Assembly: GCA_033723415.1 (NCBI GenBank)
Contig: JAWVXD010000001.1
Coordinates: 397,090-461,089 of the forward strand
Direction: 5' to 3'
DNA length: 64,000 nucleotides
DNA from: Sulfurospirillaceae bacterium
Lineage (GTDB): Bacteria > Campylobacterota > Campylobacteria > Campylobacterales > Sulfurospirillaceae
Shown here: piece after piece, positions 4,362 through 62,370 of the stretch
Layout of the letters: each line of letters begins with the position of its first letter
Numbering within the stretch: position 1 is the stretch's first letter
Notes under the pieces: generated by a model
Told to the model about the DNA's origin: nothing
The model's database searches: none
Seen by the model: the letters and a program-made list of their open reading frames with translations, nothing else
Translations under genes and position numbers: made by a program

Positions 4362-4465
4362 TTTTTCTCCTTTTGAGACATCTGCTATGTATGCCTTATT
4401 GTCCCTATTTTACGTCTTTTATAATTAAAATAGTATTAAATTTTTTGAATCATTAAATAAAGAAA

Positions 4466-4484
4466 ATATGCAAAATTTGCATAT
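4466..4484. promoter_or_regulatory. Perfect 9-1-9 palindrome ATATGCAAA-A-TTTGCATAT, candidate operator
   Basis: Sits in the divergent intergenic region between aor and the MFS gene. Confidence 0.4.
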
Positions 4485-4598
4485 CTTTTTTTACACACTT
4501 TTTTAATTTAGACAACATAAAAAGTGAATTTTTGCTATCATAACGGGGAAATTTTAAATCCGATAAAAAATCTTTGATTGTAGGGAACAGAGTAAAAT

Positions 4599-5759
4599 AT
4601 GATATCAAAAAAACAAATCTTGATCATGTCAGCAGCAGCCGGAGTAAATGCCGCAAATATTTATTATTCTCAGCCTATCTTGAATAATATTGCATTAAAT
4701 CTAAATCTTAGTCATGGACAGGTTGGAAATCTTCCTGTATTCACACAGGTTGGTTATGGACTTGGATTGTTCTTTTTAACTCCGCTTGGAGATATGATAG
4801 ATCGAAAAAAGTTGATAGTATTTTTACAGATCTCATTAGTATTTACTTTATTTGGTATGACGATCATAGATAATATAAATTCTCTATACATATTGAGCCT
4901 TATGACAGGACTTTTTGCTGTTGCTCCACAAGTAATCATACCTATGGCAGTCTCTATGAGTCCAAACACAAAAGGCAAGGTTGTAGGTACCATATTTAGC
5001 GGCCTATTGATAGGCATCTTGATAGCTAGGACTTTTAGTGGATATATGGCACATTGGTTCTCTTGGCATACGGTATATGGATTATCTGCTTTATTTGTTT
5101 TTCTCTGCATCGTCTTGGTTCAAAAGACTCTACCAAACATAGAACCAAATTATTCAAGCAGTTATATATCACTTTTAAGATCAACTTTTGTGCAGATGAA
5201 ACGATTTGCTCTTTTGAGAAAAGTTTCACTTTTGGGAGTTTTTTCATTTGGTATTTTTTCATCTTTTTGGACTACACTGACGTTTAGATTAAGTGAGGGG
5301 CCATTTCATTATAGTAGCGGCACTATAGGGTTATTTGGTATTTTAGCAGTAGGAGGTGCTCTTCTAGCTCCAAAACTTGGTAAACTTTCTGATAGGGTCA
5401 ATCCTCAATTAACAAAATTTTTGGCTGTTTTTACTATCATAATATCCATACTTATGATTAGATGGTTTGACACATATGTATTGGCTTTTGTTCTAGCTAC
5501 TATTTTACTTGACATAGGTGTTCAGGCTATCCAGATAAACAATTTTGCGCAAATTTATACCTTGGATGAAGAAGCTCACAGCAGGATAAATACAGCATAC
5601 ATGACAAGCATGTTCCTGGGTGGATCTATCGGTACGTTTATAGGTGTAAAATGCTGGGAGTTTGGCGGATGGAACTTTGTCACTATACAACTTTTATCAT
5701 GGTCGCTCATAGCCTTGATTATAGTATCTTCAAGCTATAAAAGTATAAAAAAAACTTAA
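4599..5759 (+). CDS. MFS transporter (YnfM-like)
   Basis: About 12 hydrophobic segments; ANIYYSQP, PLGD..DRK, G.LIGILIAR motifs. Confidence 0.9.
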   Translation: MISKKQILIMSAAAGVNAANIYYSQPILNNIALNLNLSHGQVGNLPVFTQVGYGLGLFFLTPLGDMIDRKKLIVFLQISLVFTLFGMTIIDNINSLYILSLMTGLFAVAPQVIIPMAVSMSPNTKGKVVGTIFSGLLIGILIARTFSGYMAHWFSWHTVYGLSALFVFLCIVLVQKTLPNIEPNYSSSYISLLRSTFVQMKRFALLRKVSLLGVFSFGIFSSFWTTLTFRLSEGPFHYSSGTIGLFGILAVGGALLAPKLGKLSDRVNPQLTKFLAVFTIIISILMIRWFDTYVLAFVLATILLDIGVQAIQINNFAQIYTLDEEAHSRINTAYMTSMFLGGSIGTFIGVKCWEFGGWNFVTIQLLSWSLIALIIVSSSYKSIKKT

Positions 5760-7527: not shown

Positions 7528-10389
7528 ATGTCCGAGACTTGCAATCGTAGACCAAAGTGTACACATCAAAAATATGGTGATTCTACGAAGTGTATCTTGC
7601 ATTGTGATAAATCAAATTTTAACGATGATGATATAAGATTTTTTTGGGAAAAAATACGGGAAGAATATATTCAGTACTCTTATCCTGATATTTCTAATGA
7701 GATTATCATAGAAGATGTAATCTTCCCTAAATTTGGAATTTTTAACAGGTATAACACATATTTTTTTCAAGGCAATTGTAGATTCCTTCATAATGTAAAA
7801 TTTATAAAGTGTATTTTTACAGATAATTTTGATTTATCACAAGCCGAATCTAGCCAAAAGATAACATTTGATAATTGTACTTTCTATGGAGATATTCAGT
7901 TCAGCCAGTCAAATACAATAGAGATAATAAATAATTCTCAGTTTAAAAATGAAGTCTCATTTGGACATTCCTGCTGGAATAAATTAGAGATAAAAAGCAC
8001 CAAGTTTTTTCAAGATACAAAAATATACATAAAAAATGATTTAAATATAGATGATTGTACTTTTAATAATGATGTCTTAATAGATGGTTTTACTACTTTG
8101 AACTTAGGTATTAAAAACGGATCATATAAGAAACTAGTAACCATAAGTAATACCAAAAGTATAAAGCTTGAAGATGTTAAATTGAACTCAGATGTAAATT
8201 TCAGTGGGACTAATGATAATATCGATATAAAAAATATCGAATTTAAGAAAGATGTGACTTTTGATGCATTTAATAATTTACACTTAAACAACACCCAGTT
8301 TCATCAAAAAAGCAATTTTAGTCCAAACCCATATCATGACATCACTTTTGACAACACAAAAATGAATGATGTGGAATTACATTCTGGGAATACTTTGACT
8401 ATCGTTAATTCTAGTGAAGTCAATGGAAATCTAAAGCTAAACGAAGTATATCAAAAGTTAAATATTGAAAATTGTAATATTAAGAAAAACTTGAATGTTG
8501 GCAATGTCAAGGAGATTATATTAAAGTGGAGTAGACTTGAAAAAAACTCAGTATTTAGCGGTGTATATAATGATGTAGATATCTTGGAATGCTCATTTAA
8601 AGACTTGACAATAAATGCAACCAATACAATAAAAATAAGTGACAGTAAAATTACTGGTGACCTTGATTTGCTTGGACAAGACTATAAAGATATATCTGCC
8701 AGCCACACTGAGATTTCTGGTACGATACAAATAGGTAAAGCGACAAAAATAGAGTTAATTGATCTAAAACCAAATCCATCTCTAAAACTGATAAATGATG
8801 AATATGAAGATGTCAATATAAAAGACTCAAGATTTACCGATGTTAAAATGAACTCTATAAAGGTATTAAATATTCAAAAGACTACAATAAATGGTATATT
8901 TAGTTTATTGGGAGAACAAAATCAAAATTTAACCTTTAATACGGTTAAATTTAAAAATAGATGTGATTTTCCTAATATTACTAAGTTGATTTTCAATAAA
9001 AGCAGTTTTGCAAAAGATGTGAATTTTAATACTTTAGGCAGGTTAGTTTCAAATCAAACTCAATTCAATGAAGACGTGAAATTTTTAGCAGAATGCACAA
9101 CTATTGAACTTGAAAATTGCGAATTTCATCAAAAAATGCAACTCTCAAAAGTTACAAATTCGTTGGATTTCAAATCTTGTTGCTTTAAAGGGGAGGTCGA
9201 TTTCAGGAATGGTGAATTTAAGGTAGTAAATATACTTTCTTCAACTTTTGAAGGTGATTTATTGTTATCCTCATCCATAATAGAAAAAATTCATCTAGAT
9301 AAGATAACAGAAGAATTGGCTGAAAATAACTCATTTTCTTCCGTAGATTTTACTGAATCACAAATTAAGTATATTACTATAGCCAACTCTAATTTTAGTG
9401 GTACATTAAAATTTACAAAGTTACAGCAAACACAATCTTTATTATCCTTAGATAATATTACAACGTCGACTATTGAATGTTTGATGATTGAACATAGTAC
9501 GATAATGAACTTATTTAGGAGTTCCAAGCATCTAATAATTAACAATTTTACACTAGAAAATGTAAAATTAGACACAAATAGTTCAGAAATAGATTTAACA
9601 GATATAAAAATAAGTGAACTAAAATTCAATAAAATAAGTATCTTAAAAAATATGAATTTTAGTGAAATGAAGATAAAAAAATTCATAATAGGCAATTCAA
9701 ACATAGAACATGTATTTAGAATAAAATACTCTGATATAGGTACTTTTACACTCATATCTAGTACTTTTGAAGACTTACAGATAATAGACAATAAATGTGA
9801 GCATTTTGATGAAGAAAAAAAATTAATATTGAGAAACACGACAATAAAAAATGCTGTATTAGACAAATTAAGATATAACAGTTTTATTATGAATGATGCT
9901 CATGTAAGTGATGTTAAAATAGGTTATGTAAAGTTCAAAAAGGGGAGTAGAGAAACAAATAGATTTTTCAAAAATTATTATGATTCAATTAGTGATTATA
10001 TTACAGCAAATACATATTATAAACAAGAGATGGAAGAACAACTCAAAGCTTCTTCTACTGATAACGGGGAGAAATTTGTTTTATGGATAGGGAAAACAGT
10101 TTCTAATTTTGGGCAAAGTTGGAGTCGACCTCTTTGCTTAATGATTTGTTTTTCAATTTTCTTTTTTATGTATATGCATTGGCAAATATTTTATAGCTAC
10201 GGATGGCATTATTTATGGCAAAGTAAATTAACTATTTGGAATGAATTTTGGGAATTTTTAAATCCATTTGTAAGAACAATTGATCCACAATACAAAGGAA
10301 GTTATAGTATTTGGATATTTCATAAAATATTGATGGCTATTCTCATGTATCATTTTATTGTAGCAGTAAAAAGAAAAACAAAAAGATAA
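7528..10389 (+). CDS. 953-aa pentapeptide-like beta-solenoid protein with N-terminal Cys/His cluster and C-terminal membrane domain
   Basis: C..CILHC N-terminus; long run of (I/F)xNxxF-type repeats; SNFGQSWSRPL followed by 2-3 hydrophobic helices. Confidence 0.7.
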   Translation: MSETCNRRPKCTHQKYGDSTKCILHCDKSNFNDDDIRFFWEKIREEYIQYSYPDISNEIIIEDVIFPKFGIFNRYNTYFFQGNCRFLHNVKFIKCIFTDNFDLSQAESSQKITFDNCTFYGDIQFSQSNTIEIINNSQFKNEVSFGHSCWNKLEIKSTKFFQDTKIYIKNDLNIDDCTFNNDVLIDGFTTLNLGIKNGSYKKLVTISNTKSIKLEDVKLNSDVNFSGTNDNIDIKNIEFKKDVTFDAFNNLHLNNTQFHQKSNFSPNPYHDITFDNTKMNDVELHSGNTLTIVNSSEVNGNLKLNEVYQKLNIENCNIKKNLNVGNVKEIILKWSRLEKNSVFSGVYNDVDILECSFKDLTINATNTIKISDSKITGDLDLLGQDYKDISASHTEISGTIQIGKATKIELIDLKPNPSLKLINDEYEDVNIKDSRFTDVKMNSIKVLNIQKTTINGIFSLLGEQNQNLTFNTVKFKNRCDFPNITKLIFNKSSFAKDVNFNTLGRLVSNQTQFNEDVKFLAECTTIELENCEFHQKMQLSKVTNSLDFKSCCFKGEVDFRNGEFKVVNILSSTFEGDLLLSSSIIEKIHLDKITEELAENNSFSSVDFTESQIKYITIANSNFSGTLKFTKLQQTQSLLSLDNITTSTIECLMIEHSTIMNLFRSSKHLIINNFTLENVKLDTNSSEIDLTDIKISELKFNKISILKNMNFSEMKIKKFIIGNSNIEHVFRIKYSDIGTFTLISSTFEDLQIIDNKCEHFDEEKKLILRNTTIKNAVLDKLRYNSFIMNDAHVSDVKIGYVKFKKGSRETNRFFKNYYDSISDYITANTYYKQEMEEQLKASSTDNGEKFVLWIGKTVSNFGQSWSRPLCLMICFSIFFFMYMHWQIFYSYGWHYLWQSKLTIWNEFWEFLNPFVRTIDPQYKGSYSIWIFHKILMAILMYHFIVAVKRKTKR

Positions 10390-10415: not shown

Positions 10416-11471
10416 TTAAAACAGATCCGTGGTTTTTTTCAATCTCTCTTGGTCAAAATGCGTATAAATTCTGGATGTATTGATATCTGCATGACCGAGG
10501 GATTCTTGAACGAGTACCAAATCTCTGTTTTTTTGGTAGAGCAGGGTGGCAAACGTGTGTCTTAGCATATGGCAACCGTTTTTCTCTTTCCTTAAGCCCG
10601 CACTCATAAGTATCTGCTCAACTAAGCGGCTTAGATAGGCTTGTGTTAATTTTGTGCCCTTTTGATTGCAGAACATCAGCCCGTCTTCACAATTTCTGAT
10701 CTCAAGCCATGCAGCCAAGTCCTCTTTGATCACGCGCTCTCTTATCATGACGACTCTGGATTTATTTCCTTTTCCTGTTATCTTTATGATGTAATTATCT
10801 TCTTCTTTGAAAAAGTCCTTGATCTTGACACTGATCGCTTCTCCGACTCTGATGCCTGTATAAAGGATTAGTTTTATGACCAAGCGGTTCCTAGCGCCAA
10901 GTTCAGGAGTTTTGTAATCAAATGCATCGATTGCATTGATAAATCTAGAGGCTTCTTCTTTGTTAAGAAAAGAGGGCAGTTTGACACCGCTTTTCCCGCT
11001 CAAACCGCCCCAATTTTTAAGCTCTATACCATATCTGTAGGCGTTGCCGTTTTCATCTTCATTTTGTTTATCTATATAACCAAAAAAGCCAAGTAGGGCG
11101 ATACGGTAGTTTTTTTTACTCGCATCTGACAAACTTGAAGTCTCACTCGCTAAAAAATCACTCAGAAGCTCTTCATCGATCTCTTTCATAGAACCTGCAC
11201 CAAATCGCATAAGATACTCATATAGCTTTTCAAGTGGACGGTAATAGACATGAACGCCACTCATACCTATATTTCTCGCTTCTTTTAAAAGATTTGTTAG
11301 AGTTTTTATATCACTGGTACCTTTTGCTAGATTTTGGATAATGATTGCCAGTTTGTCTTTGTCCGTTACTTGTCGATTTGAAAGAGTCGTAACCTTGTTG
11401 CGTATAAATCTACTAAGCCAAAAAAGATACGTTTGACTAAAAGTCGACTCAAGATCAAGAGAATACCTCAT
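10416..11471 (-). CDS. xerH: XerH-type tyrosine recombinase (chromosome dimer resolution)
   Basis: YTGIRVGEA, GKGNK.R, HMLRHTFAT, LGHADINTSRIY; 351 aa with the Campylobacterota XerH-type N-terminus (MRY.LD...F...LFWL.RF); difH-like site 50 bp upstream. Confidence 0.88.
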   Translation of the reverse strand: MRYSLDLESTFSQTYLFWLSRFIRNKVTTLSNRQVTDKDKLAIIIQNLAKGTSDIKTLTNLLKEARNIGMSGVHVYYRPLEKLYEYLMRFGAGSMKEIDEELLSDFLASETSSLSDASKKNYRIALLGFFGYIDKQNEDENGNAYRYGIELKNWGGLSGKSGVKLPSFLNKEEASRFINAIDAFDYKTPELGARNRLVIKLILYTGIRVGEAISVKIKDFFKEEDNYIIKITGKGNKSRVVMIRERVIKEDLAAWLEIRNCEDGLMFCNQKGTKLTQAYLSRLVEQILMSAGLRKEKNGCHMLRHTFATLLYQKNRDLVLVQESLGHADINTSRIYTHFDQERLKKTTDLF

Positions 11472-11553: not shown

Positions 11554-11619
11554 TGGATTTATTGGCTTGAAACTTAAACGAGTGAGAAATTATGAGTTAA
11601 AACTTAAAAAGAGTATGTC

Positions 11620-12243
11620 ATGATAGACATAAAACTCATTGATAAGTTTAAAAATGGCCGTACAACGGTTGAGAATGATATTTTACTAGATAGTACCTTG
11701 ACAGCAACTGAAAAGATAGTCTATATGTACATCGAAATGCTATCGCACAAAGATAACTACTGTTATGCGACAAATATACAGATATCGGATCTTACCGGAC
11801 AAACAATAGACTCATTGAAACAAGCATTTAAAAAACTCAAAAAGAAAAAATACATTGTAGTCGATACGCTACAAACGCGCACACCATACAAGCGCCGTAT
11901 ATTCACGGAAACACGTTTTTTACGTGCTTGGAATCAAAACACCCTACCCCGTGACTGTACGGTAAAAGAGCCAATAAAACGGCCTGACGAGCTAGATAGA
12001 CAAGCAATCAGCAAGTCATTTCCAAAGTTTAGGAAATTCATAAAATTATATCTTACAGAAAATCAATTTAACATCACTACACCGGGCGAACTTCAAAACA
12101 AAACTATCATGATCAAAAAGAACGGCTACTACACAAGCATTTGGGATGCGCGAGATCTCACAAAAGATGAAAGCGTAACGTTTGAAATGCTGATGTTCGA
12201 TAAACGCGAAACATTGCTAGATAATTTTTTCAATAAGGAGTGA
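11620..12243 (+). CDS. Provirus replication initiator with N-terminal winged HTH
   Basis: T.V.NDIL.D..LT..EK.VY..I...CYATN.QIS...G....S......KL.KK.YI pattern typical of phage/plasmid HTH replication proteins; first gene of element. Confidence 0.7.
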   Translation: MIDIKLIDKFKNGRTTVENDILLDSTLTATEKIVYMYIEMLSHKDNYCYATNIQISDLTGQTIDSLKQAFKKLKKKKYIVVDTLQTRTPYKRRIFTETRFLRAWNQNTLPRDCTVKEPIKRPDELDRQAISKSFPKFRKFIKLYLTENQFNITTPGELQNKTIMIKKNGYYTSIWDARDLTKDESVTFEMLMFDKRETLLDNFFNKE

Positions 12244-12431
12244 AAATGCAAATCAAAAAAGGTGATATTATTGTCTATAAAGTCGGTAAGAATACAAAGC
12301 AAAGCAAAGTTAGAAAGATGAACTTTGATAATAGTGCTTCAATTTTTGCAAAAGAAAAGATCATACCTTGGGATAATATTTTAGGCGTATGCTCTACTAT
12401 AAAGGATCATCATGATAATCGAAATAAATGA
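12240..12431 (+). CDS. Provirus small basic protein (SH3/KOW-like pattern)
   Basis: IKKGDIIVYK; AAGGAG RBS; ATG at 12246 is an alternative start. Confidence 0.6.
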   Translation: MKMQIKKGDIIVYKVGKNTKQSKVRKMNFDNSASIFAKEKIIPWDNILGVCSTIKDHHDNRNK

Positions 12432-12627
12432 GGAAGATTATGACTTTATCATGTATCTTATCAGAGAGGAAATATATGATAAAAAAGACAGTTTAGAGAT
12501 ACTTAAAGGCAAAGATCATTTTTATGGTAACGAAGATCCATATAGGATAAAGAGGATCAAAGAGTTAAAAAGAGAGATTAGAAAGATTATTGAACTAAGG
12601 AGAGCTTTAAAACGAGGAATAAAATAG
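12412..12627 (+). CDS. Provirus small charged hypothetical protein
   Basis: AAGGA RBS, overlaps previous ORF. Confidence 0.65.
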   Translation: MIIEINEEDYDFIMYLIREEIYDKKDSLEILKGKDHFYGNEDPYRIKRIKELKREIRKIIELRRALKRGIK

Positions 12628-12637
12628 CTGTTTAACT

Positions 12638-12718
12638 CTCATATAGGGATACCGTAATTTCCCTATATGAGCGTTTTCATGTTACGGAATGAAAGCGCCT
12701 TTATATCAAAATAAAGGC
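12638..12718 (+). promoter_or_regulatory. Three consecutive stem-loops between early genes and holin
   Basis: CTCATATAGGGA/TCCCTATATGAG; GCGTTTTCAT/ATGAAAGCGC; GCCTTTAT/ATAAAGGC, the last covering the AAGG before the holin ATG. Confidence 0.6.
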
Positions 12719-12723
12719 ATAAA

Positions 12724-13173
12724 ATGGGAATAACAAATTTTTTCAGCGGTTTATTTAGCAGCGGAGCCGCAAAAGTAGTCGATGCGATCGGCAATGCAGC
12801 AGATAAACTCTTTACAAGCGATGCAGAGCGTTTACAATTCCGTAATGATCTACAAAAAGAGCTAGACGATCTCAAAGTCAAACTCAATGATGCACTTGCG
12901 GCATACGACAAAGAGATCACGACACGCTGGCAAAGCGATAACGAACACATCATCACGCGCTTAGTGCGCCCTCTTTCGTTTATATACGTTCTCGTCATAT
13001 TTTCATTTATGGCGCTACTTGACGGAAATATCGGAACATTTCATATCAACACGGCTTATTTGCCTATATTTCAAGGGTTACTTGGAACTATGGTTGTCGC
13101 CTACTTTGGCAGTCGTGGTATCGAAAAAGTATCAAACATAATAAAAAAATCAAATCAAGGAGATAACCAATGA
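12724..13173 (+). CDS. Holin (3TM / GTA-type holin family)
   Basis: D.LFTSD.ER, RW.SD, .R.VRP, two C-terminal TM helices, AYFGSRGIEK. Confidence 0.85.
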   Translation: MGITNFFSGLFSSGAAKVVDAIGNAADKLFTSDAERLQFRNDLQKELDDLKVKLNDALAAYDKEITTRWQSDNEHIITRLVRPLSFIYVLVIFSFMALLDGNIGTFHINTAYLPIFQGLLGTMVVAYFGSRGIEKVSNIIKKSNQGDNQ

Positions 13174-13505
13174 GTACAAAAAAGCAAATAGATCAGATCG
13201 AAGAGATAGAAGATCTACCCGATCAACTTGATCCACCAAATCCAGAGATTGAAAAGGAAAAGCCGGAAGTTGAGATAAAAGAAACTTTGACACCGGATCT
13301 CGAAAAAAAGATTGATGAGATTGAACATAAATTAGATCAATATCATGTTCAATCTATCAAAAAAGAATTTGAAGATCATTCAAAAGAAAAACTACAAAGA
13401 TCAAAATCTAAATTTATTTGGTTATTTGGTAGTATTTGTGTTGCTAGTATTGGCTTAATACTTATAAAAAACGCTAAAAACAGCGAAACGGAGGCTAATG
13501 GATGA
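13170..13505 (+). CDS. Provirus membrane protein (acidic N-terminus, C-terminal TM)
   Basis: AAGGAG RBS; FIWLFGSICVASIGLILI segment. Confidence 0.75.
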   Translation: MSTKKQIDQIEEIEDLPDQLDPPNPEIEKEKPEVEIKETLTPDLEKKIDEIEHKLDQYHVQSIKKEFEDHSKEKLQRSKSKFIWLFGSICVASIGLILIKNAKNSETEANG

Positions 13506-14065
13506 GTAAAGAAGCGGTTGACGGAACGGATAATGGCGTAGAAAGGAATATTCCTTTTGAAGAAATGGGAAACAGTACGGAGGGCATTACCCGTACTGAG
13601 TTAATGGAAAAAACCGGCAAAGAACTAGCAAAAATGGCATTGCCTTATACAACTTGGAAAGAGAGTACATTATCAAAGTTATCTAAGCCAGAACTATGTG
13701 ATATCATACTAACAAAAGGAGCAAATAAAGAGCAGCAAGAGCCGAGAGCTAGAGCAGCAAGAGCCACGAGTGATAGTGAAGCAATTATCGAGACATTTCT
13801 TGCTATTGCAGAGAGTTTTAAGCTTAAAAGAGAAAAAGAGCCTTTAAATGCTACAGCCAAACAGATCTTTAAAAATAATGCCGTTAATTTAGTCGATAAA
13901 AAGGTTGAAGAGGAAACGTTAAGCAGCCACGGTGTAAATGTTACAGTGGCATTTATTGCCGGTACATTTTTAGCTATAGACGGGCTTATAGGCTTAGCAA
14001 ACATCCCAACATTCTTTTCAAAGATAAAGAGCAAACTAAATGTTAATAAAACAGAAGCAAAATAA
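13502..14065 (+). CDS. Provirus membrane protein preceding the ATPase
   Basis: GGAGG RBS; C-terminal hydrophobic segment VTVAFIAGTFLAIDGLIGL. Confidence 0.75.
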   Translation: MSKEAVDGTDNGVERNIPFEEMGNSTEGITRTELMEKTGKELAKMALPYTTWKESTLSKLSKPELCDIILTKGANKEQQEPRARAARATSDSEAIIETFLAIAESFKLKREKEPLNATAKQIFKNNAVNLVDKKVEEETLSSHGVNVTVAFIAGTFLAIDGLIGLANIPTFFSKIKSKLNVNKTEAK

Positions 14066-14696
14066 GATAATTACAGTTATCGGACATAAGGGCTATGGAA
14101 AAACAGCTTTAACAGAAGCCCTTATGCTTATGTATGATAAACCGACAATTATCGCAGATCCACGATTTCAATACTCTACTTTTCAAAAGCGCCGTGTAAG
14201 CTTTAGATCTGTAGGTGATTTTAGAAAGTGGATCTATAACACGGCAAATTTCAAAGATTTTTATAAATACAAACTCGAACTCGTCGTAAATGCTTTTGAT
14301 GATACATTTGAAGAGTTAGCACATATTGTGAGACAAATGAGATCTTTGATGTTTGTCGTCGATGAAGTAGATATGTTCTTAGATCCACGGGCTACAAAAA
14401 ACAACTCCTTGAACAAAATTATTCAGTATGGTAGACACCACGAGATCGACATCATAACTACTTCTAGGAGACCGGCAAACATCTCGCGTAACTTAACATC
14501 TCAAACAGATATATTTTATTTCTCTAAGTTACGCGAGCCAACTGATAAACTGTACATAAAACAAGCGATAGGTGCAGAATATGTCAGTACCGTTGAAAAC
14601 TTAGAGAGATTTAGCTTTTTAGAGTTTGAAGACGAAGAACACCAAAAGATCATCACTACTTCTGAAAGAGATCTTGAACTATTACAAAGAGGGTGA
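14040..14696 (+). CDS. Genome-packaging ATPase (A32/FtsK-HerA superfamily)
   Basis: N-terminal Walker A GHKGYGKT, Walker B FVVDEVD, GRH..I.IITTSRRP..I...L arginine-finger motif; 218 aa, no TM. Confidence 0.85.
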   Translation: MLIKQKQNKIITVIGHKGYGKTALTEALMLMYDKPTIIADPRFQYSTFQKRRVSFRSVGDFRKWIYNTANFKDFYKYKLELVVNAFDDTFEELAHIVRQMRSLMFVVDEVDMFLDPRATKNNSLNKIIQYGRHHEIDIITTSRRPANISRNLTSQTDIFYFSKLREPTDKLYIKQAIGAEYVSTVENLERFSFLEFEDEEHQKIITTSERDLELLQRG

Positions 14697-14721
14697 GGAA
14701 AAATCTTTGAAAGGAGGAAAA

Positions 14722-14817
14722 ATGCAAGCAAAATTGATGAAAGGCTTTGTCTTAGGTATCACCGTAGTTGTTATAAGTGGCGTTGTGGGTAAATGGATCC
14801 CATCCGTAAAAATATAA
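14722..14817 (+). CDS. Provirus micro membrane protein (31 aa, MQAKLMKGFVLGITVVVISGVVGKWIPSVKI)
   Basis: AGGAGG RBS; single TM helix; shorter start than ORF track. Confidence 0.7.
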   Translation: MQAKLMKGFVLGITVVVISGVVGKWIPSVKI

Positions 14818-14843
14818 AAAAATTTATCATATAAGGAAAAAAT

Positions 14844-14951
14844 ATGAATATCACAAAACTTGATGTTTATTTGGCAGCAGGTATCTTAGTTGGCATTGCA
14901 GCCGGGAAAAAATTTGTTGATCCGATCTTAGTTTCGGTTTTGGGGGCATAG
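14844..14951 (+). CDS. Provirus micro membrane protein (35 aa, MNITKLDVYLAAGILVGIAAGKKFVDPILVSVLGA)
   Basis: TAAGGA RBS; stop 1 nt before capsid ATG; not in ORF track. Confidence 0.7.
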   Translation: MNITKLDVYLAAGILVGIAAGKKFVDPILVSVLGA

Positions 14952-14952
14952 T

Positions 14953-15912
14953 ATGGCGCAATCATTAAAAGTAAAAGAAAATTCCGCAACGTGGGCAGCT
15001 TCTACTCAATCCAGGATCCCTCTTAGTAGAAATTATCATGTGGAAAATTACCTTGTGAAAATAAAAGTAACACATGATAACGGGGCAACCCCTGTGTTTT
15101 ATAATGAGGGCGTTTTTTCTTTAATTAACAATATACAGTTGATTGGAAATGGCAATGAAAATATTAAACAAATGCCAGCAAACAAATTATATATCGACAG
15201 TATTTTAAGAAGTGGGAAAAATGGCGGTAACTCTCTTGATACTACAGCAAACAAAACCGGACTTACAAGCTATGTTTGGGCCCGTATCAATCTAAGTATG
15301 CCAAATTCTGTTCGACCTTGGGACACTATCCTATGGACAAAACCATTCCAATCTCTCGATCTTATGATTGATTGGGCTTCAAGTGCAAATATCGGATCTA
15401 ATATTACTGTAACAGCAGCAGAAATGACAGTATTTTCAAATCAGTTAATCGGATATAGTAGAGCAAAAGGCGAAGTGATTAAATACTATGAAGAAACAGC
15501 ACTTAAAGAAGAAGTGACTGGAACAAATGCTCAATTAACTTTCAATTTACCAGTAAATAAACTTTATAGAGCTATTTCTATAGTATCAACAATTAATGGC
15601 TTAAGAGCTGATACTGTGATAAACTCTATTAAGCTAAAAAGCGGGCAAACAGTTTTTTGTGATTGGGATGCTGAAGCATTTAACGAACACAATAAAGAAA
15701 CATATCGTATTGAATCATCAACAGATTTTAAAGGAATCTATGTAGTTGATTTTGCAGAGCGTGGAAGACTAAGCGATATGCTGAATACAATCGTAGCACA
15801 AGGTGGTTACAATACTTTAGAACTTGTTTTAAACGTCACAAAACAAACGGGATCAAACTTTGTAGACGTCTATTTTGACACGGTAAAACAGACTACAGCA
15901 ACGGAGGTTTAA
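14953..15912 (+). CDS. Putative double-jelly-roll major capsid protein (STIV-like)
   Basis: 319 aa, alternating beta-strand pattern in two halves; just downstream of the ATPase; N-terminus TWAASTQSRIPLSRN and second-half LPVNKLYRAI...VVDF resemble recalled STIV B345. Confidence 0.75.
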   Translation: MAQSLKVKENSATWAASTQSRIPLSRNYHVENYLVKIKVTHDNGATPVFYNEGVFSLINNIQLIGNGNENIKQMPANKLYIDSILRSGKNGGNSLDTTANKTGLTSYVWARINLSMPNSVRPWDTILWTKPFQSLDLMIDWASSANIGSNITVTAAEMTVFSNQLIGYSRAKGEVIKYYEETALKEEVTGTNAQLTFNLPVNKLYRAISIVSTINGLRADTVINSIKLKSGQTVFCDWDAEAFNEHNKETYRIESSTDFKGIYVVDFAERGRLSDMLNTIVAQGGYNTLELVLNVTKQTGSNFVDVYFDTVKQTTATEV

Positions 15913-15913
15913 T

Positions 15914-16219
15914 ATGCCTAATTATAACGGGGATGGCACAAACGGCGGTATTTCCACCGCCTCCACTCCAATTTCAGGAACGGTAAATGGTACTGATTGG
16001 TTATCAAATATTTTAAAGCCTATTAGTAATGCCGTTGTTACAGTTGCACAAACACAAGCACAAGTTGACGCACTAAAATCACAGACCGCTACACAACAAA
16101 ATTATCAAAATACACAAAACGCAATTGGATCTAAAAATATCATTGGCGGTGTGGATAACAATATCTTACTTTTGGGTTTAGTTGGTGTAGTCGGAATTTA
16201 CATGTTTATGAAAGGGTAA
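15914..16219 (+). CDS. Putative virion membrane protein (Gln/Thr/Asn-rich, C-terminal TM)
   Basis: GGAGG RBS; ILLLGLVGVVGIYMFMK terminus. Confidence 0.75.
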   Translation: MPNYNGDGTNGGISTASTPISGTVNGTDWLSNILKPISNAVVTVAQTQAQVDALKSQTATQQNYQNTQNAIGSKNIIGGVDNNILLLGLVGVVGIYMFMKG

Positions 16220-16222
16220 ATT

Positions 16223-16609
16223 ATGGGTTTCTTTGGTGGAAGTGCTAGTAGTAGCGGAATTGTAACAAGTAGCATTAATTTTAACCCGTCAATGCAGTTT
16301 GGCACAGATAATACAGCAAAGCCCTCTCAATCAGTAAGTCAGACACCCAAATTGACACAAACTACAAAGGATCAAGGGCTAGCAGCCGCCGCAAGTGTTG
16401 GGCTTGGTTTTGGTGGGAGTGGATCTGCAGGGCCGGCAAGTTTGGCAGAAGCTCCTCTGGTTGGATCTGCACAAACTGGAAGCGCTGCACAGCCTTTAAG
16501 TACTTTGGCATCTAATTACAAAAAATATTTGCCTTTACTTGGCTTAGCCGGAGTTGGTGGATATATGCTAATTGTAAATGATAAGTCTGGAAAAAAGGCT
16601 AAAAAATGA
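16223..16609 (+). CDS. Putative virion membrane / DNA-delivery protein (Gly/Ser/Ala-rich, C-terminal TM plus basic tail)
   Basis: YLPLLGLAGVGGYMLIV followed by KSGKKAKK. Confidence 0.75.
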   Translation: MGFFGGSASSSGIVTSSINFNPSMQFGTDNTAKPSQSVSQTPKLTQTTKDQGLAAAASVGLGFGGSGSAGPASLAEAPLVGSAQTGSAAQPLSTLASNYKKYLPLLGLAGVGGYMLIVNDKSGKKAKK

Positions 16610-16920
16610 GTTGGTTAAGTAGTCTTTTAGGTGGTGGAGGCAGCACAAGCTCCACTACCTCAAACACAACGGTAAGTGTAAGTCCAACTACAATTATAAA
16701 TACCGATAAACTGGCTCAAGCTATAGCAGACGGAAATGCAACACAAGCACAACTTGCACAAGCAACAATCACAGCACAAGTAGCCGAACAAAACGCAAAA
16801 TTGCAACAAAACGCGCAGATCTTTGATACCTTAAGAGCAGGCGCAAAAAAATATGCTTTTTTAAGTTTGCTAGGCTTTGGAGTTTACAAGATTTTTAAAA
16901 ACAAAAGAGGTAAAAAATGA
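16606..16920 (+). CDS. Putative virion membrane / DNA-delivery protein
   Basis: MSWLSSLLGGGGS start, Ser/Thr then Ala/Gln coil, C-terminal TM and basic tail; ATGA overlaps at both ends. Confidence 0.75.
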   Translation: MSWLSSLLGGGGSTSSTTSNTTVSVSPTTIINTDKLAQAIADGNATQAQLAQATITAQVAEQNAKLQQNAQIFDTLRAGAKKYAFLSLLGFGVYKIFKNKRGKK

Positions 16921-17471
16921 ATTACAACGTAATTACAAAAGATATATCTAACGGGCTATCTCTTAGTCAAAGCAATACACTTGGAAAAGGAGATTATATT
17001 ATCTTAAGATATGCGCCGGATCTTGCGAATGTACGAGTGAGATTAAACAGCCCTGATGCTCCTGCAATAAGTATGATACAAGATGACAGCATCAATGCAA
17101 AAGGCATAAATCTTGTATATATCGAGTGTGACCCAGTAGCAGCAGAAAAGATAATCTTTGCCCAGGGCAATACAGATCTAGACTTTCAAATCAATCCGGC
17201 TCCTGCTCTTAAAACTGTAAATGTAAACGGATCTTTTATGCCGCGTACGGATCAAAAACAAACGATAGCTGCAGGAGCAAATTTTATATTAGACACAACG
17301 ACACTTAAAGCGATCAGGTTTCTAGCTACTGATTACGTTGATGTGTCACTCAATGGCAGTGCAATAAACTATCAAATGCTAGAAGATGAGATCTACACGG
17401 GTAATATCACGTCGTTAAAGTTTACAAACAACACGGCTTCAGCCATTGATCTTGTAATATGGGAGATGTAA
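16917..17471 (+). CDS. Putative vertex/spike protein (beta-rich)
   Basis: 184 aa soluble beta-strand pattern, position after membrane proteins; function inferred. Confidence 0.55.
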   Translation: MNYNVITKDISNGLSLSQSNTLGKGDYIILRYAPDLANVRVRLNSPDAPAISMIQDDSINAKGINLVYIECDPVAAEKIIFAQGNTDLDFQINPAPALKTVNVNGSFMPRTDQKQTIAAGANFILDTTTLKAIRFLATDYVDVSLNGSAINYQMLEDEIYTGNITSLKFTNNTASAIDLVIWEM

Positions 17472-17472
17472 A

Positions 17473-17853
17473 ATGTTAGGTATTTCAAGAGCTTTGGTAG
17501 AAAAACTTTTCGCAAAAAAAAGCGACAAAAATCAGTGTACAGCTTGGGTTGTATTTGACGGAACAACAACTCCTCCAACAATAAAAGATAGTTATAATGT
17601 TATTTCTGTTACTAAAATTGCAGTCGGTGTCTACGATATAAATTTTACAATACCTATGAAAAATATAAACTACCAAACAAGTGGATCTGTAACAGATGAT
17701 AATTCTTCTAGTGGGTTTATCTATGAAAGAGGCACTTTTGCACAAAATAGAACCGTTAATAAATGCAGAATTGTAACTATTCAGATATCTGGAGGTAATA
17801 CAAGTACAGTTGATCGTTCAGGGATAACATTCAGCGCAATTGGAGGTATCTAA
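17473..17853 (+). CDS. Fibre / receptor-binding domain protein
   Basis: AWVVFDG...IKDSYNV.SVT....GVY.INF..PM.N.NY pattern seen at C-termini of phage tail fibres. Confidence 0.65.
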   Translation: MLGISRALVEKLFAKKSDKNQCTAWVVFDGTTTPPTIKDSYNVISVTKIAVGVYDINFTIPMKNINYQTSGSVTDDNSSSGFIYERGTFAQNRTVNKCRIVTIQISGGNTSTVDRSGITFSAIGGI

Positions 17854-18164
17854 TGGGATATTTTAAAGTAGTTAACGATTATGTTCAAACGTGTAGTAAA
17901 AAAATAGATGATACTTGGTTTCCAATTACTAGAGATCAAAACGGAAATATCATCGGGCCGAGTGTTCTAGTCACGCAAATTGCAGATGAACAAAAAGCAA
18001 CTTCAAACGCAAAAATAATGCAGCAGATAACAGCACTTGAAAGTGAACTGATAAGACCGATGCGAGAGCTTTTAAGCTCAATTGTAACAGACAAAACCTA
18101 TGCTCAAACAAAGGTAAATGACATCGAAACAAAAATTGAAGCTTTGAGGGCTCAAATTGTCTAA
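17853..18164 (+). CDS. Small protein following fibre gene (possible fibre chaperone)
   Basis: GGAGG RBS; helical C-terminus I..QI.ALE...IRP.RE....IE..I..LR.Q. Confidence 0.6.
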   Translation: MGYFKVVNDYVQTCSKKIDDTWFPITRDQNGNIIGPSVLVTQIADEQKATSNAKIMQQITALESELIRPMRELLSSIVTDKTYAQTKVNDIETKIEALRAQIV

Positions 18165-18690
18165 GAAAAAAATAATAGCCTATGGCTCTTTTTTGGTGTC
18201 ATTGGTATATTTTAGGAGTTTTTTTATGTACGGATTAATTTCAAAAAAACATTTGGACGAAATTATCGTCAATGTAGTTAATACACTAGGTGGAGGTCAA
18301 AATGCTATAGATCTTTTAAGCGAAACGGCTATGTCGGAGACACACTACGGAGATACACCGGACCTACACTTACACAGCGGTTATGGAATTTTTCAATTTG
18401 ATAAGCCAGGCTTTGATGATGTAGTTGCCAGAACACCGCAAAGTACAAAGGATCTCATCAAAAAAGTCTATGACATTGACATCGATCAAGTCAGCATATT
18501 GGCGCTGCAATGGTCGCCGCTTTTAAGTACGATCTTTGCACGACTTTTTTACATGCTTCGCCCTGGTGCGATCCCTGATACAATTCAAGGACGGGCACAG
18601 TATTGGAAACAGTATTACAACACTTTTGCGGGAGCAGGAACGGTGCAACATTATCTTAATGCAAACCAAACCGAAAGGTTTAACGCATGA
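18157..18690 (+). CDS. Putative murein hydrolase (lysozyme-like), two possible starts (TTG 18157, ATG 18226)
   Basis: LL.ETA..ET..G, G.G.FQFD, AR L.Y...P..IP.T...RA.YWK.YYNT..G.GT pattern of a phage lysin family. Confidence 0.7.
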   Translation: MSKKKIIAYGSFLVSLVYFRSFFMYGLISKKHLDEIIVNVVNTLGGGQNAIDLLSETAMSETHYGDTPDLHLHSGYGIFQFDKPGFDDVVARTPQSTKDLIKKVYDIDIDQVSILALQWSPLLSTIFARLFYMLRPGAIPDTIQGRAQYWKQYYNTFAGAGTVQHYLNANQTERFNA

Positions 18691-19067
18691 CACCAACTTT
18701 AAATAATAATTTAGCGGATATGTTTGTTGCGTCCACACCGGTTTTGCAGACGGCACCGATACAGTCAAGCAATTTAAGTACATTTGATAAGATATTATAC
18801 GGTTATGATAATATGATCTCAAATGCTAGTAATTCAGCAGATCAAACGCTTACAGATCAAGCGATTGCACAAGAAAAATTTAAACAAAATGCATCGAATA
18901 TGTATACAAATTTTAAAGCAAGTCTTGGCAGCGCATACGATACGATCAGCAAAGATCTAAATATCTCAAAAAATATTTTGATCTATGGCAGCATTGCCGC
19001 CGGATCTCTTTTTCTTTGGGATAAGATCGGGCGTGATATTTACTACATGACACAAAAGGGGAAATAA
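18687..19067 (+). CDS. Provirus membrane protein (C-terminal TM)
   Basis: ATGA overlap with lysin; ILIYGSIAAGSLFLW segment. Confidence 0.7.
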   Translation: MTPTLNNNLADMFVASTPVLQTAPIQSSNLSTFDKILYGYDNMISNASNSADQTLTDQAIAQEKFKQNASNMYTNFKASLGSAYDTISKDLNISKNILIYGSIAAGSLFLWDKIGRDIYYMTQKGK

Positions 19068-19189
19068 TGCACGAAATAGCAATGTGGATGCAAATTTTAA
19101 CACCGGTAGTTATTTTGCCACTAGCAAAGACTTTAAGCGATCTAAAAAGAGACGTTGCCGTTCTTATGGAACGTACAAAGGGAATGTAA
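19067..19189 (+). CDS. Provirus micro protein (40 aa, MHEIAMWMQILTPVVILPLAKTLSDLKRDVAVLMERTKGM)
   Basis: TAATG overlap, AAGGGG RBS; hydrophobic N-half then short coil; not in ORF track. Confidence 0.65.
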   Translation: MHEIAMWMQILTPVVILPLAKTLSDLKRDVAVLMERTKGM

Positions 19190-19190
19190 T

Positions 19191-19325
19191 ATGGACTTAA
19201 CACAAGCAAGCAACGCAGTCGGAGCACAAATAAAAGAAGGGATCATACAATCTGGTAAAGATATCGGTTTTAAGATTACACTTGGTTTATGTATTATTGC
19301 AATCGCAATTTATGCTAAAAAGTAG
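19191..19325 (+). CDS. Provirus micro membrane protein (44 aa, MDLTQASNAVG...ITLGLCIIAIAIYAKK)
   Basis: Starts 1 nt after previous stop; C-terminal TM plus KK; ends at terminator; not in ORF track. Confidence 0.65.
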   Translation: MDLTQASNAVGAQIKEGIIQSGKDIGFKITLGLCIIAIAIYAKK

Positions 19326-19350
19326 TGACGAGATCTCGTCACACTTTTTT
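19325..19350 (+). terminator. Rho-independent terminator of the virion operon
   Basis: Palindrome GTGACGAGATCTCGTCAC followed by T-run. Confidence 0.75.
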
Positions 19351-19569
19351 AATCTCTTTTTTGTCTTAAGTTTCAAATCAACCTTAAGCCTTTTTCTATC
19401 TCGGATCTCCTGGCGCTGCACAAATCAAAACTACTATAAAATCGACATTTCATTTTTTAAAAAATTTATAAAATCGTTTAAGTTTCAAAATAACCTTAAA
19501 CGATTTTATTCATATAGATCTTCTTCTTTATGATATACTTTTCTAAAAATTTATATCAAAAGGCTTTAT

Positions 19570-19968
19570 ATGACAAAAATTATACTCTCAAGCATAGCGA
19601 TATCCGCCCTATTCTTTGGATGTGCTAGTAAAGAGCCATTATCAACCGTTGAAGCAACTGACTACGCTATGAGCTGCAATGCTCTTATAAGTGAAATTAG
19701 CGACATAAGATCACAACTACAAACGGAAGAAACTACAAATGAAGCTAAAAATATCATCGGTAAAACTTTAACATTCGGAATTTATAGCGCAGACAATGAA
19801 AAAGCCATACTTTTGCGCGAACGTGCAAAGAGTTTACAGCTTATATATACAATAAAACAAGCAAAAAATGAGTGCAAACAACTAACTGAAAAAGATCTAC
19901 AAGTAAATAGCACACCCGTGAGAGAAATAAAAAATCTAAAAGCACAAACAAAAGAGCTTAAAAATTAA
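19570..19968 (+). CDS. Provirus lipoprotein (separately transcribed moron)
   Basis: Signal peptide with lipobox LFFG-C; extended -10 TGATATACT at 19531-19539; AAGG RBS. Confidence 0.8.
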   Translation: MTKIILSSIAISALFFGCASKEPLSTVEATDYAMSCNALISEISDIRSQLQTEETTNEAKNIIGKTLTFGIYSADNEKAILLRERAKSLQLIYTIKQAKNECKQLTEKDLQVNSTPVREIKNLKAQTKELKN

Positions 19969-20285: not shown

Positions 20286-20365
20286 GCGAAAATCAAATCA
20301 AGCCTAAATAATATTATTTATCTAAGATATCTATCAAAAAAAGACTTTGTATATATATAGGAAAC

Positions 20366-20439
20366 CTAGTGTCTCATAGACACCAGAAAGTAATGACCTA
20401 GTGTTTCATAGACACTAGCTGTTGTCTCACAGACACTAG
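20366..20439. repeat. Three 21-bp palindromic repeats (consensus CTAGTGTCTCATAGACACTAG), candidate origin iterons
   Basis: Copies at 20366-20386, 20398-20418, 20419-20439, followed by an all-AT tract 20440-20474. Confidence 0.75.
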
Positions 20440-20594
20440 ATAATAAAAAATTTATTAATTTTTTAAAAAATTAAGCTTGGTTTAAAAAGTTTAGTATTAG
20501 AATGGTGCTTTAAGTTTCAAAGCTACGAAGAGTAGCCGTGCAATGCTTGCAACAAAACACGGCTTACAAATACAACCTATTACGGAGGTTATAA

Positions 20595-57204: not shown

Positions 57205-58164
57205 TTAATGTTTGAGTTTTGTTATCAAGTGTTGCAGAGATAAACTAATGTTATTTTTAAAAATTTCTCCATATTCTGTTTGCTCGTTTATAAGCTCGTA
57301 TGCTTCAATCAACCCTAGATCAGACTGTATAGCTCTTCTCAATATTTCAAGTACTGCTGTTGCATCATTTGGATTTATATGAGTTGGCGCTTCTTTCCCA
57401 TACGTAAAATGCCTATGTATCCTCTCAACAAGTTTTTTATTACTTACTTCTATAAAAACAGACTCTAGCGGAGCTTTAAAAAATATCACACCATTTTTGA
57501 TATTAATCGAAGTATATGTCGTATCTAAGCCATATATCTTTCTTGAGAAAGAATCAAAAAAATATAGTTTTTTATTGTAATTTTCATGAAAGTTATCGTA
57601 CATAAGATTTAAAATAGAGATTTTTTGCTCTTTAGTATAAAAATTTCCTATAGGAGAAAAACAAAAACTAAGCAATGATTTTATACTATACCACTCCACA
57701 GTTTGAAAGGAATAAGAAAGCATTTTTTCTACCCTCTCCTTTTTAAATTCTTCTACCTCTTTCGTACTTTGTGTTCTATATACTCTTGGAACAGTGCTAT
57801 CTCTGTACATAGGTCCTGGAAATTGTGGATGTATCACAAATCTTTCTTTGTCTTCATATTTTATTATATATTTTAATCCCTCAAGATAGCCCTCGTCTAT
57901 TATTTTCACTTCTTCTTTTGGTATATTTGTAATAAGATCTAAAAATTCTTCATTTTGACAATTCTCATCCCAGATATTTTCTGGATATCTGAAAAATTTT
58001 GATATTTTTTGCTTTACTTCATCGCTTGGTTGCTTATCTGAAATCTTGTCTATCCAGGAAGTAACGGTTCTTCTGTCTTTACCTATGATAGAAGAAAACT
58101 TTGATATACTTAATTCTGATTTATTAAATATCATTATAATTTTTTCAATTATGCTTTTTTTCAT
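57205..58164 (-). CDS. Uncharacterised protein with N-terminal XRE-like HTH, candidate prp regulator
   Basis: LSISKFSSIIGKDRRTVTSW helix-turn-helix pattern; divergent from prpE; start reassigned to MKKSIIEK. Confidence 0.7.
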   Translation of the reverse strand: MKKSIIEKIIMIFNKSELSISKFSSIIGKDRRTVTSWIDKISDKQPSDEVKQKISKFFRYPENIWDENCQNEEFLDLITNIPKEEVKIIDEGYLEGLKYIIKYEDKERFVIHPQFPGPMYRDSTVPRVYRTQSTKEVEEFKKERVEKMLSYSFQTVEWYSIKSLLSFCFSPIGNFYTKEQKISILNLMYDNFHENYNKKLYFFDSFSRKIYGLDTTYTSINIKNGVIFFKAPLESVFIEVSNKKLVERIHRHFTYGKEAPTHINPNDATAVLEILRRAIQSDLGLIEAYELINEQTEYGEIFKNNISLSLQHLITKLKH

Positions 58165-58196
58165 TATTCGCTCTCTCACTACAACTTCGTTTTCTA

Positions 58197-58215
58197 TTGT
58201 ACAATTATTGTACAA
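58197..58215. promoter_or_regulatory. TTGTACAA-TTA-TTGTACAA candidate operator
   Basis: Two self-palindromic octamers 3 bp apart between the HTH gene and prpE. Confidence 0.5.
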
Positions 58216-61225: not shown

Positions 61226-61235
61226 AGGATGATCA

Positions 61236-62351: not shown

Positions 62352-62370
62352 AAAAAGATAAAGGGCAAAA

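Follow-up and report, generated by a model that had tools for sequence, protein, structure and literature searches.

A probable STIV-group double jelly-roll provirus at the difH site beside xerH in a Sulfurospirillum-type bacterium

The group of double jelly-roll (DJR) major capsid proteins (MCPs) that takes its name from Sulfolobus turreted icosahedral virus (STIV) was defined by Yutin et al. 2018 (PMC5894146), who describe numerous bacterial (pro)viruses that are more divergent than the archaeal core of the group, all with a STIV-like packaging ATPase, and who find a beta-sandwich jelly-roll protein ('B_sand') in most members (this and the following papers are cited for the portions that were available to us). 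Two supplementary files of that paper, as far as available, name no Sulfurospirillum, Sulfurimonas, Arcobacter or Epsilonproteobacteria host. A 2024 paper on Sulfurimonas phages (Commun Biol, PMC11531552) assigns two viral operational taxonomic units (vOTU_60 and vOTU_61) to the STIV group, assigns three others to the PM2 group, and notes a beta-sandwich gene in the STIV-group units. The integrative mobile elements exploiting Xer recombination (IMEX) reviewed in PMC5357621 include CTXphi, VGJphi, TLCphi and the gonococcal genetic island, and all those named there use XerC/XerD; CTXphi integration through XerCD is described in PMC1950889, and Xer-mediated integration via XerC/XerD is likewise reported for PM2-like, NO16-like and FLiP-like tail-less phages and for filamentous phages. 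Here we describe a provirus of ~9.2 kb, its MCP and its junctions with the host chromosome, found in a 64,000-nucleotide stretch of a Sulfurospirillaceae genome (contig JAWVXD010000001.1; the whole stretch is called the window below).

We conclude that the 319-aa protein in question is very probably the DJR capsid protein of a small, tail-less STIV-group virus with a membrane (realm Varidnaviria) that resides as a provirus in a Campylobacterota chromosome, integrated at difH and most likely by XerH. This reading is built on the fold, the family membership, the gene order, the junction sequences, the host status of xerH and the circularity of related genomes, all of which were computed here. 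The protein is a genuine STIV-group DJR MCP, its provirus is complete and sits at difH in a Sulfurospirillum-type bacterium, and it belongs to a kind of capsid already known in bacteria. The original prediction, made by eye from the sequence, had placed the protein closer to the archaeal STIV capsid than to those of PM2 or PRD1 and had suggested a bacterial STIV-like virus with an identified host. The first suggestion is supported by profile searches, by direct phmmer comparison and by the published classification of a relative, vOTU_61 (JALUWV010000063, our locus L005), whose MCP is 42% identical to the window MCP over its full length. The second holds as well, but its novelty was overstated; the capsid call is not new in kind because bacterial STIV-group members were published in 2018 and this 42%-identical relative, from Campylobacterota metagenome-assembled genomes (MAGs), in 2024.

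The peptides on which the prediction rested (ATWAASTQSRIPLSRNYHVENYLVKIKVTHDNG, LPVNKLYRAISIV, FNEHNKETY and VVDF) are all present in the translation of the open reading frame (ORF), and the STIV strings set against them are genuine, being found in alignments with STIV B345 (PDB 3j31_A/2bbd_A). Both proposed pairings are reproduced by HMMER and hhalign: window residues 12-39 align with STIV residues 13-37 at the N-terminus, and in the second barrel window residues ~197-270 (LPVNKLYRAISIV / FNEHNKETY / VVDF) align with STIV LQPGQIYKRQLV / LQAENQAEY / IIDF. This second-barrel region of the window MCP includes LPVNKLY / NKETY / VVDF. When the MCP was searched as a single sequence against all PDB sequences no capsid was found, the only match being to the unrelated yxiM (E 0.047), and BLASTP against PM2 P2 gave E 0.51. 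The significance of the STIV likeness is reached only through family profiles and the predicted fold, not from the two sequences alone.

Homologues of the MCP at E<=1e-3 number 34, and 33 of them were aligned (alignment A1; the partial, 279-aa P0016 was left out). A search with A1 of 1.84 billion cluster representatives returned 830 clusters, counted at 50% identity, at E<=1e-3; of these, 423 reach E<=1e-10 and 58 reach E<=1e-30. Because the narrow A1 profile was too weak for STIV, a wider alignment, A2, was built from 144 rows, namely the window MCP, 6 homologues and 137 of the 149 newly listed representatives (290-365 aa; the 12 of other lengths were dropped). Against all PDB sequences, the A2 profile, a search of the kind the original prediction had proposed as its check, matched STIV 3j31_A at E 1e-16 (64 bits, positions 4-306 against 4-310) and STIV 2bbd_A at E 1.7e-16, as against E 0.012 (17.8 bits) for PM2 P2; PRD1 P3 was not listed at E<=10 with either A1 or A2. 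The hhalign comparison of A2 gave 98.3% with STIV B345 (E 1.7e-14, 280 columns), 35.5% with PM2 P2 and 40.4% with the candidate capsid protein (319 aa) of Marinomonas phage YY. In direct phmmer searches at E<=1e-3, STIV B345 matched 37 of 183 family proteins, most strongly P0167 (2e-13), whose 90% cluster includes a Candidatus Woesearchaeota protein; PM2 P2 and the YY protein each matched none of the 183. Among the groups of Yutin et al. 2018, it is the STIV/TKV4 type to which these comparisons, which cover the MCP's own family and reference capsids, link the MCP. The family itself spans proteins of Candidatus Woesearchaeota, Sulfurimonas and Sulfurospirillum.

A quick maximum-likelihood tree of a family subsample with three references (STIV, PM2 and YY) has 65 rows in all. 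PM2 and YY stand apart from the other 63 rows, STIV included, with a support of 98 in the Shimodaira-Hasegawa-like approximate likelihood ratio test (SH-aLRT), and the window MCP falls in a clade of 14 with support 96. In this phylogeny, of the kind suggested with the original prediction, STIV sits on a long branch (2.21) with a weakly supported placement (82).

An A1 scan of IMG/VR gave 129 pattern matches, of which tblastn confirmed none, and a tblastn search of 50,697 deposited phage genomes found no recognisable MCP homologue (best E 0.6). With 830 clusters and yet no recognisable homologue in those genomes, the group is abundant but uncultured. Phage YY was considered as a cultured relative and rejected, its 319-aa capsid candidate grouping with PM2 (P2_C 41 bits, hhalign to A2 only 40%). 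In the record of phage YY (L059, MH105080) most features are annotated as + strand misc_features, but it is solely the minus strand that is open for the 319-aa capsid-like ORF (4273-5232) and for several of its neighbours.

The AlphaFold2 model of the MCP, computed from alignment A1, has a mean predicted local distance difference test score (pLDDT) of 91.9 and a predicted TM-score (pTM) of 0.87, and it folds into two consecutive eight-stranded jelly-roll barrels in a single chain. We regard the DJR fold as certain because every strong PDB match of the model, without exception, is a DJR capsid protein (Table 1). By predicted structure alone, STIV and PRD1-type capsids appear nearly tied and PM2 is clearly lower. 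The structural comparison envisaged with the original prediction is borne out as to the fold and as to the highest Z, which belongs to STIV, but it does not by itself separate STIV from PRD1. That the MCP is closest to the PRD1/Bam35 (Tectiviridae) type seems very unlikely to us: the likeness to P3, which Foldseek ranks above STIV, is one of fold only, P3 being unlisted with both family profiles, the target-length TM-score is 0.64 for PRD1 against 0.73 for STIV, Pfam identified no protein-primed DNA polymerase in the 14 element ORFs scanned, and relatives assemble as circles rather than as linear genomes with inverted terminal repeats.

Table 1. Structural matches of the predicted MCP model (of the two TM-scores the second is the target-length value; FLiP was not listed with an E or TM-scores)
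Target	Z	r.m.s.d.	Aligned residues	E	TM-scores
STIV 2bbd_A	28.8	2.6	293 of 323	2.6e-18	0.74 / 0.73
STIV 3j31_A	28.4	2.4	288	4.4e-17	0.74 / 0.69
PR772/PRD1 P3	27.3-26.4	~3.0	~298	3e-21 (best)	0.76 / 0.64
PM2 P2	23.3	2.9	252 of 269	1.7e-15	0.63 / 0.74
PBCV-1	21.7	3.6	300	3.5e-16	0.69 / 0.57
FLiP	17.1	3.9	266

A model with three copies of the MCP reached an ipSAE interface score of 0.92 (best control 0.00), with at least 90% of contacts common to the runs and a partner pLDDT of at least 91, and in it barrel 1 of one chain contacts barrel 2 of the next in a cyclic arrangement, which is what a DJR capsomer should show. In the calibration of ipSAE, the mark was reached by 20 of 30 solved homo-pairs and by 1 of 23 solved single chains. 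The trimer is a prediction, and its score may stem from the model's memory of solved DJR trimers.

The gene for the packaging ATPase lies directly upstream of the MCP gene in every related locus that holds both, so that the MCP is encoded together with an FtsK/HerA-type (A32/B204-like) packaging ATPase, as in DJR viruses. The top PDB sequence match of the ATPase is the 'Genome packaging NTPase B204' of STIV2 (4kfr_A, E 2.5e-6, residues 9-197 against 5-192) and the second is STIV B204 (4r2h_A, E 1.9e-5); the likeness to B204, which agrees with the ATPase type of the STIV group, is modest at about 28-31 bits. The ATPase thus points the same way as the MCP, but less strongly. In a comparison with STIV itself, BLASTP found nothing for the ORF annotated B264, which was rejected as the homologue; the homologue is the ORF annotated B164 (the crystallised B204). 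The ATPase of phage YY is the sole match to the window ATPase among deposited phages (E 4e-5).

Several results weigh against a STIV-group capsid. BLASTP of the MCP against STIV B345 gives a non-significant E of 0.13 over 31 residues, and the A1 profile reaches STIV only at E 1.1 (hhalign 15%); the STIV link therefore depends on the more distant members of the family. To the long branch and weak placement of STIV in the tree are added the Foldseek ranking of PRD1-type P3 ahead of STIV and a Z difference between STIV and PRD1 of only 1.5. The ATPase resembles that of phage YY (26-29 bits) no less than it resembles annotated STIV B164 (11-14 bits). The nearest Pfam models are those of PM2 P2, P2_C matching 75 of the 144 A2 members (best 8.5e-10) and P2_N 35 of them, while Pfam STIV-like_capsid (PF22405) matches none of the 144, window MCP included, at E<=0.01. 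STIV B345 matches this narrow model only, at 309 bits, and because PF22405 is unmatched in the family the window virus is not a turrivirus in the narrow sense.

Taken together, some of these results would suit a divergent, enlarged member of the PM2 group (Corticoviridae/Vinavirales), in which case the element would be a corticovirus-like provirus of the sort long known in aquatic bacteria. The only Pfam matches are indeed to PM2 P2 domains: the window MCP matches P2_C at E 5.7e-5 and 23.5 bits, under the 25-bit cutoff, and P2_N not at all at E<=0.1, and some family members do exceed the Pfam P2 gathering score, although the window MCP does not. PM2 P2 itself scores 87.6 and 73.1 bits on its own models P2_N (PF18628) and P2_C (PF25513). 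The circular genome of ~9 kb and the PM2-like order of ATPase, small membrane protein, MCP and small membrane proteins point the same way, as does the likeness of the ATPase to that of phage YY, which is filed by NCBI under Corticoviridae. Integration at dif through Xer is reported for PM2-like and related tail-less phages as well. Set beside the A2, phmmer and tree results given above, membership in the PM2 group nevertheless appears improbable to us, and assignment of the MCP to the STIV group is preferred.

We now turn to the site of integration (coordinates in Table 2). The xerH-type gene is single in its own 2.43-Mb, 100%-complete genome. Of 30 relatives searched, 21 gave a match at E<=1e-20; most of these matches, from the level of the genus up to that of the order, are single and full-length with 54-79% identity. 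Judging from these sequence comparisons, xerH encodes the host's single-recombinase chromosome-dimer resolvase; it lies outside the virus, and its product is the presumed enzyme of integration. The same gene was considered as a phage integrase and rejected, being single-copy, conserved in relatives and matched over its full length by H. pylori XerH.

At the left junction the difH-type core has two well-formed arms, and viral DNA starts immediately after this xerH-proximal core both in the window and in G013, a complete genome labelled as the same genus as the window genome. At the right junction the second core has a degenerate left arm, a centre as in the native site of relatives and a good right arm, and this right arm and the outer flank resemble the unoccupied difH flank in relatives L055-L058. 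G013 carries an equivalent pair of sites 9,159 bp apart, with syntenic genes and 42-90% protein identity, and in four other relatives an unoccupied difH adjoins xerH. Within the 220 nt upstream of 20 xerH loci, the palindrome TTGGAAA / 6 nt / TTTCCAA is present in nine (the window included), a clear variant in three and neither in six, two loci being without upstream sequence; the centre of the palindrome in the xerH loci of eight relatives is CTATAA. The window site is very similar to the difH sequences published for Arcobacter butzleri and Campylobacter spp. (PMC2731167 Table 2); in A. butzleri, Carnoy & Roten (PMC2731167) list a distance of 66 bp between difH and the recombinase gene. Along the 461-kb contig the cumulative GC skew climbs until the 10-kb bin overlapping the provirus, where it is highest, and falls afterwards.

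No recombinase domain was found by Pfam and PHROGs among 14 of the 19 element ORFs (these scans, here and throughout, took in 14 ORFs, the short ones of 63, 71, 63, 40 and 56 aa being outside), and the element is inserted at the chromosomal dif, flanked by a dif and a dif-like site, as is an IMEX. Because an element without a recombinase sits exactly at difH beside xerH, it is most likely that the host XerH catalysed the integration. XerH would recombine difH with a site that mimics dif on a circular viral genome and in doing so regenerate a two-armed dif next to xerH, which is the IMEX strategy. Integration at a tRNA gene was rejected because there is no tRNA gene near the element, both tRNAs of the window lying at ~38.9 kb. 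No report of a virus or element integrated at XerH/difH was found in the literature, judged mostly by titles and abstracts.

The case for XerH has its own counter-evidence. The centre of the xerH-proximal site is one base off the difH centre of relatives. There is so far no observation of a virion, of induction or of an excised circle, and the contigs of the sole public DNA run that holds the stretch contain the integrated form only, with no excised circle or empty site, although contigs cannot show rare forms. Use of Xer is not general in the virus group, because two relatives carry a serine recombinase: the enzyme is small (Pfam Resolvase 1e-31 in L029 and 7e-36 in L035), and its gene, at 2299-2967 of L029 and 1489-2190 of L035, stands in place of the helix-turn-helix (HTH)/Rep-like gene, which suggests that the replication and integration module is exchangeable within the group. 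Relatives L004, L033 and L005 have no recombinase domain. Among 13 related loci from metagenomes or MAGs, none has a match to the dif-type site of the window within 3 mismatches, a result that is uninformative on integration in those relatives because their hosts, and hence their dif sites, may differ.

Three further observations concern dif-like sites. Elsewhere in the genome, at G000:C6:118222-118241, there is another near-palindrome that differs from the dif core at two positions; it is probably due to chance, because a control with the reversed pattern also gave one match. In L057 (G008:C19), of the same genus, difH by xerH is accompanied by a second site 1.17 kb off (1106-1125 and 2280-2299), of which the left arm is degenerate while the centre and the right arm are perfect; the pair may mark a small Xer-exploiting insert or a remnant. 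In L055 (G009:C20) xerH (56-1093) and difH (4188-4207) are ~3.1 kb apart instead of 20-60 bp, and something seems to have been inserted between them.

Table 2. Features of the provirus and its junctions, in window coordinates
Feature	Coordinates	Strand	Remarks
Host xerH	10416..11471	-	Pfam Phage_int_SAM_6 5.9e-56, Phage_integrase 1e-31; H. pylori XerH 5jjv_A E 1.6e-100, full length
difH-type core TTGGAAA CTGTAA TTTCCAA	11525..11544		54 bp upstream of xerH; left junction, both arms well formed
Rep-like / HTH DNA-binding protein	11620..12243	+	207 aa; Pfam HTH_36 2.8e-8; phrog_428 4e-9, phrog_19658 3e-8 (replication initiation)
Two small ORFs	12240..12627	+	63 and 71 aa; 71-aa ORF 63% identical in G013
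GTA_holin_3TM-like membrane protein	12724..13173	+	149 aa; phrog_3427 holin 8.8e-14; hydrophobic segment 80-98
Two proteins	13170..14065	+	111 and 187 aa; C-terminal hydrophobic segment in each
Genome-packaging ATPase	14040..14696	+	218 aa; FtsK/HerA-type P-loop; Pfam AAA_22; phrog_2666 5.6e-22
Small membrane protein, ATPase-MCP gap	14626..14817	+	63 aa; hydrophobic segment 37-55; conserved in L003, L030, L053
MCP ORF	14953..15912	+	319 aa; ATG start
Three Gly/Ala/Ser/Thr-rich proteins	15914..16920	+	101, 128 and 104 aa; hydrophobic C-termini; position conserved in relatives
Two-domain beta-sandwich protein	16917..17471	+	184 aa
126-aa protein, then 103-aa protein	17473..18164	+	126-aa: phrog_11355 'tail fiber protein' 2.5e-12
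Conserved 177-aa protein	18157..18690	+	hydrophobic N-terminus; phrog_3108 3.6e-23; conserved in 8 related loci
Three small ORFs	18687..19325	+	126, 40 and 56 aa; partly hydrophobic; conserved in G013
132-aa protein, lipoprotein-like signal	19570..19968	+	N-terminal hydrophobic segment, then Cys; 83% identical in G013 provirus
23-nt partly palindromic repeat, three copies	20364..20439		non-coding end of element; repeat search
Degenerate dif-like core GTGTCAA CTATAA TTTCCAA	20739..20758		right junction, 9,214 bp from first core

All ORFs of the element, from 11620 to 19968, are on the + strand, and the same core gene set and order recurs in related MAG and metagenome loci. Four related contigs of 8,587-9,011 bp assemble as circles, because their termini overlap by 55-127 nt. 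The 207-aa Rep-like protein has HTH_36 homologues in relatives L004, L033 and L005. The match of Pfam PF11351 to the 149-aa holin-like protein is weak (0.014), compared with 1.7e-17 in relative L029. The 187-aa protein is present in 10 related loci and conserved upstream of the ATPase. At least 6 of the 19 element ORFs have a strong hydrophobic segment. The three Gly/Ala/Ser/Thr-rich proteins that follow the MCP, with no Pfam or PHROG family, are candidate virion membrane proteins; the 101-aa protein alone among them passes the Kyte-Doolittle threshold. The 184-aa protein is a candidate for the vertex (penton/spike) and for the counterpart of the 'B_sand' gene of STIV-group genomes; a fold search with it gave generic beta-sandwich matches only and no specific penton match. 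A candidate relationship to phage tail-fibre or receptor-binding modules is suggested by the PHROG match of the 126-aa protein downstream of it, and the 103-aa ORF has no Pfam or PHROG assignment. The 177-aa protein is a candidate muralytic enzyme: it has a motif that may be like that of muramidases and lytic transglycosylases, Pfam giving no match, and in L004, L033 and L005 a LydA-type holin gene follows it. The three 23-nt repeats at the non-coding end are possible operator or origin sites. A TTAAGTTTCAA-type motif is found at both ends of the element (19366-19507, 20510-20526 and 11560-11610) and is inverted near the Rep-like gene; together with the 23-nt repeats it may represent origin or operator sites.

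From these genes a virion may be pictured. Three MCP copies would form a pseudo-hexameric capsomer, with barrel 1 of each chain against barrel 2 of the next, and capsomers would tile an icosahedral shell over a lipid vesicle carrying the small membrane proteins encoded on both sides of the MCP. The B204-like ATPase would pump the circular genome in at a vertex, for the building of which the beta-sandwich and fibre-like proteins are candidates, and progeny would be released by the holin-like and muralytic-like proteins. The provirus may still be inducible. The opposite possibility, that the element is decayed or domesticated and the ORF no longer a working capsid gene, or that the ORF encodes a cellular DJR homologue, would fit the lack of an observed virion or excised form; set against the apparently intact gene set, of which an equivalent recurs in G013, it is in our judgement the least probable of the alternatives, and a virus that still has a functional capsid gene is preferred.

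Within its 461-kb contig the provirus is flanked on either side by host genes, namely xerH, a Sel1-repeat protein and an HspR/CbpA-type pair. The closest homologue of the MCP, at 69-70% identity, is from Sulfurospirillum sp. 1612 (NCBI name). The one public DNA run that holds the stretch, which may be the source of the assembly and was available as contigs, is labelled as a tidal-flat metagenome, and no RNA run is listed as a holder. Adjoining xerH on its non-viral side, an AT-rich stretch (GC 26.5% at 8-10 kb) includes at 7528-10389 a 953-aa pentapeptide-repeat / DUF3737-like protein. GC content is 41-44% at window positions 58000-64000, compared with ~30-38% elsewhere.

The capsid call extends the known picture, in which the STIV-type DJR lineage spans archaea and bacteria. 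What the window adds is a provirus that is complete and apparently intact, whose junctions are exactly defined and whose host genome is near-complete; a second copy is present in a complete genome of the same genus, and these two copies make induction, structural and host-range experiments conceivable. If the assignment is true, the bacterial branch of the STIV lineage gains a tractable host. The use of XerH/difH, which is apparent only, is the part most worth following up: if confirmed, it would broaden Xer hijacking beyond XerCD, because such hijacking would have evolved on the XerH system of Campylobacterota too, with the target right beside the recombinase gene. We put it at a little under an even chance that this is the first recognised virus to hijack the XerH/difH dimer-resolution system, together with a complete STIV-lineage provirus with defined junctions in a Sulfurospirillum-type genome.

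The closest described systems are vOTU_60 and vOTU_61, which share with the window element the adjacent ATPase and MCP genes, the HTH/Rep-like, GTA_holin_3TM-like, beta-sandwich and 177-aa proteins in the same order, a genome of ~9-10 kb and a host in the phylum Campylobacterota. Their records are unintegrated MAG contigs without terminal repeats, rated low-quality fragments, and the available portions of PMC11531552 describe no integration site or mechanism for them; the window copy differs in being complete and integrated, in having both of its junctions within a host contig of 461 kb, and in coming from a different genus. STIV B345 (PDB 2BBD / 3J31, Turriviridae) is about 13% identical to the window MCP. 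STIV has a crenarchaeal host and a genome of 17.7 kb, whereas the window virus has a bacterial host and ~9 kb, and STIV encodes its own tyrosine integrase (PMC5894146), of which no counterpart was found in the scanned ORFs of the window element. PM2 (Corticoviridae) is similar to the window element in its circular dsDNA genome of ~9-10 kb, in the succession of ATPase (218 aa in each), small protein, MCP and small membrane proteins, and in the weak P2_C/P2_N profile matches of the MCP. The linear genome, the protein-primed family-B DNA polymerase (none in the 14 ORFs scanned with Pfam) and the P3-type MCP of tectiviruses are not features of the window element. IMEX resemble it in having no integrase of their own, in being inserted exactly at the chromosomal dif, and in having one flanking site with two good arms and another with one good and one degenerate arm. 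The IMEX reviewed in PMC5357621 are filamentous phages or islands, whereas the window element would be an icosahedral DJR virus, at a difH that is linked to xerH.

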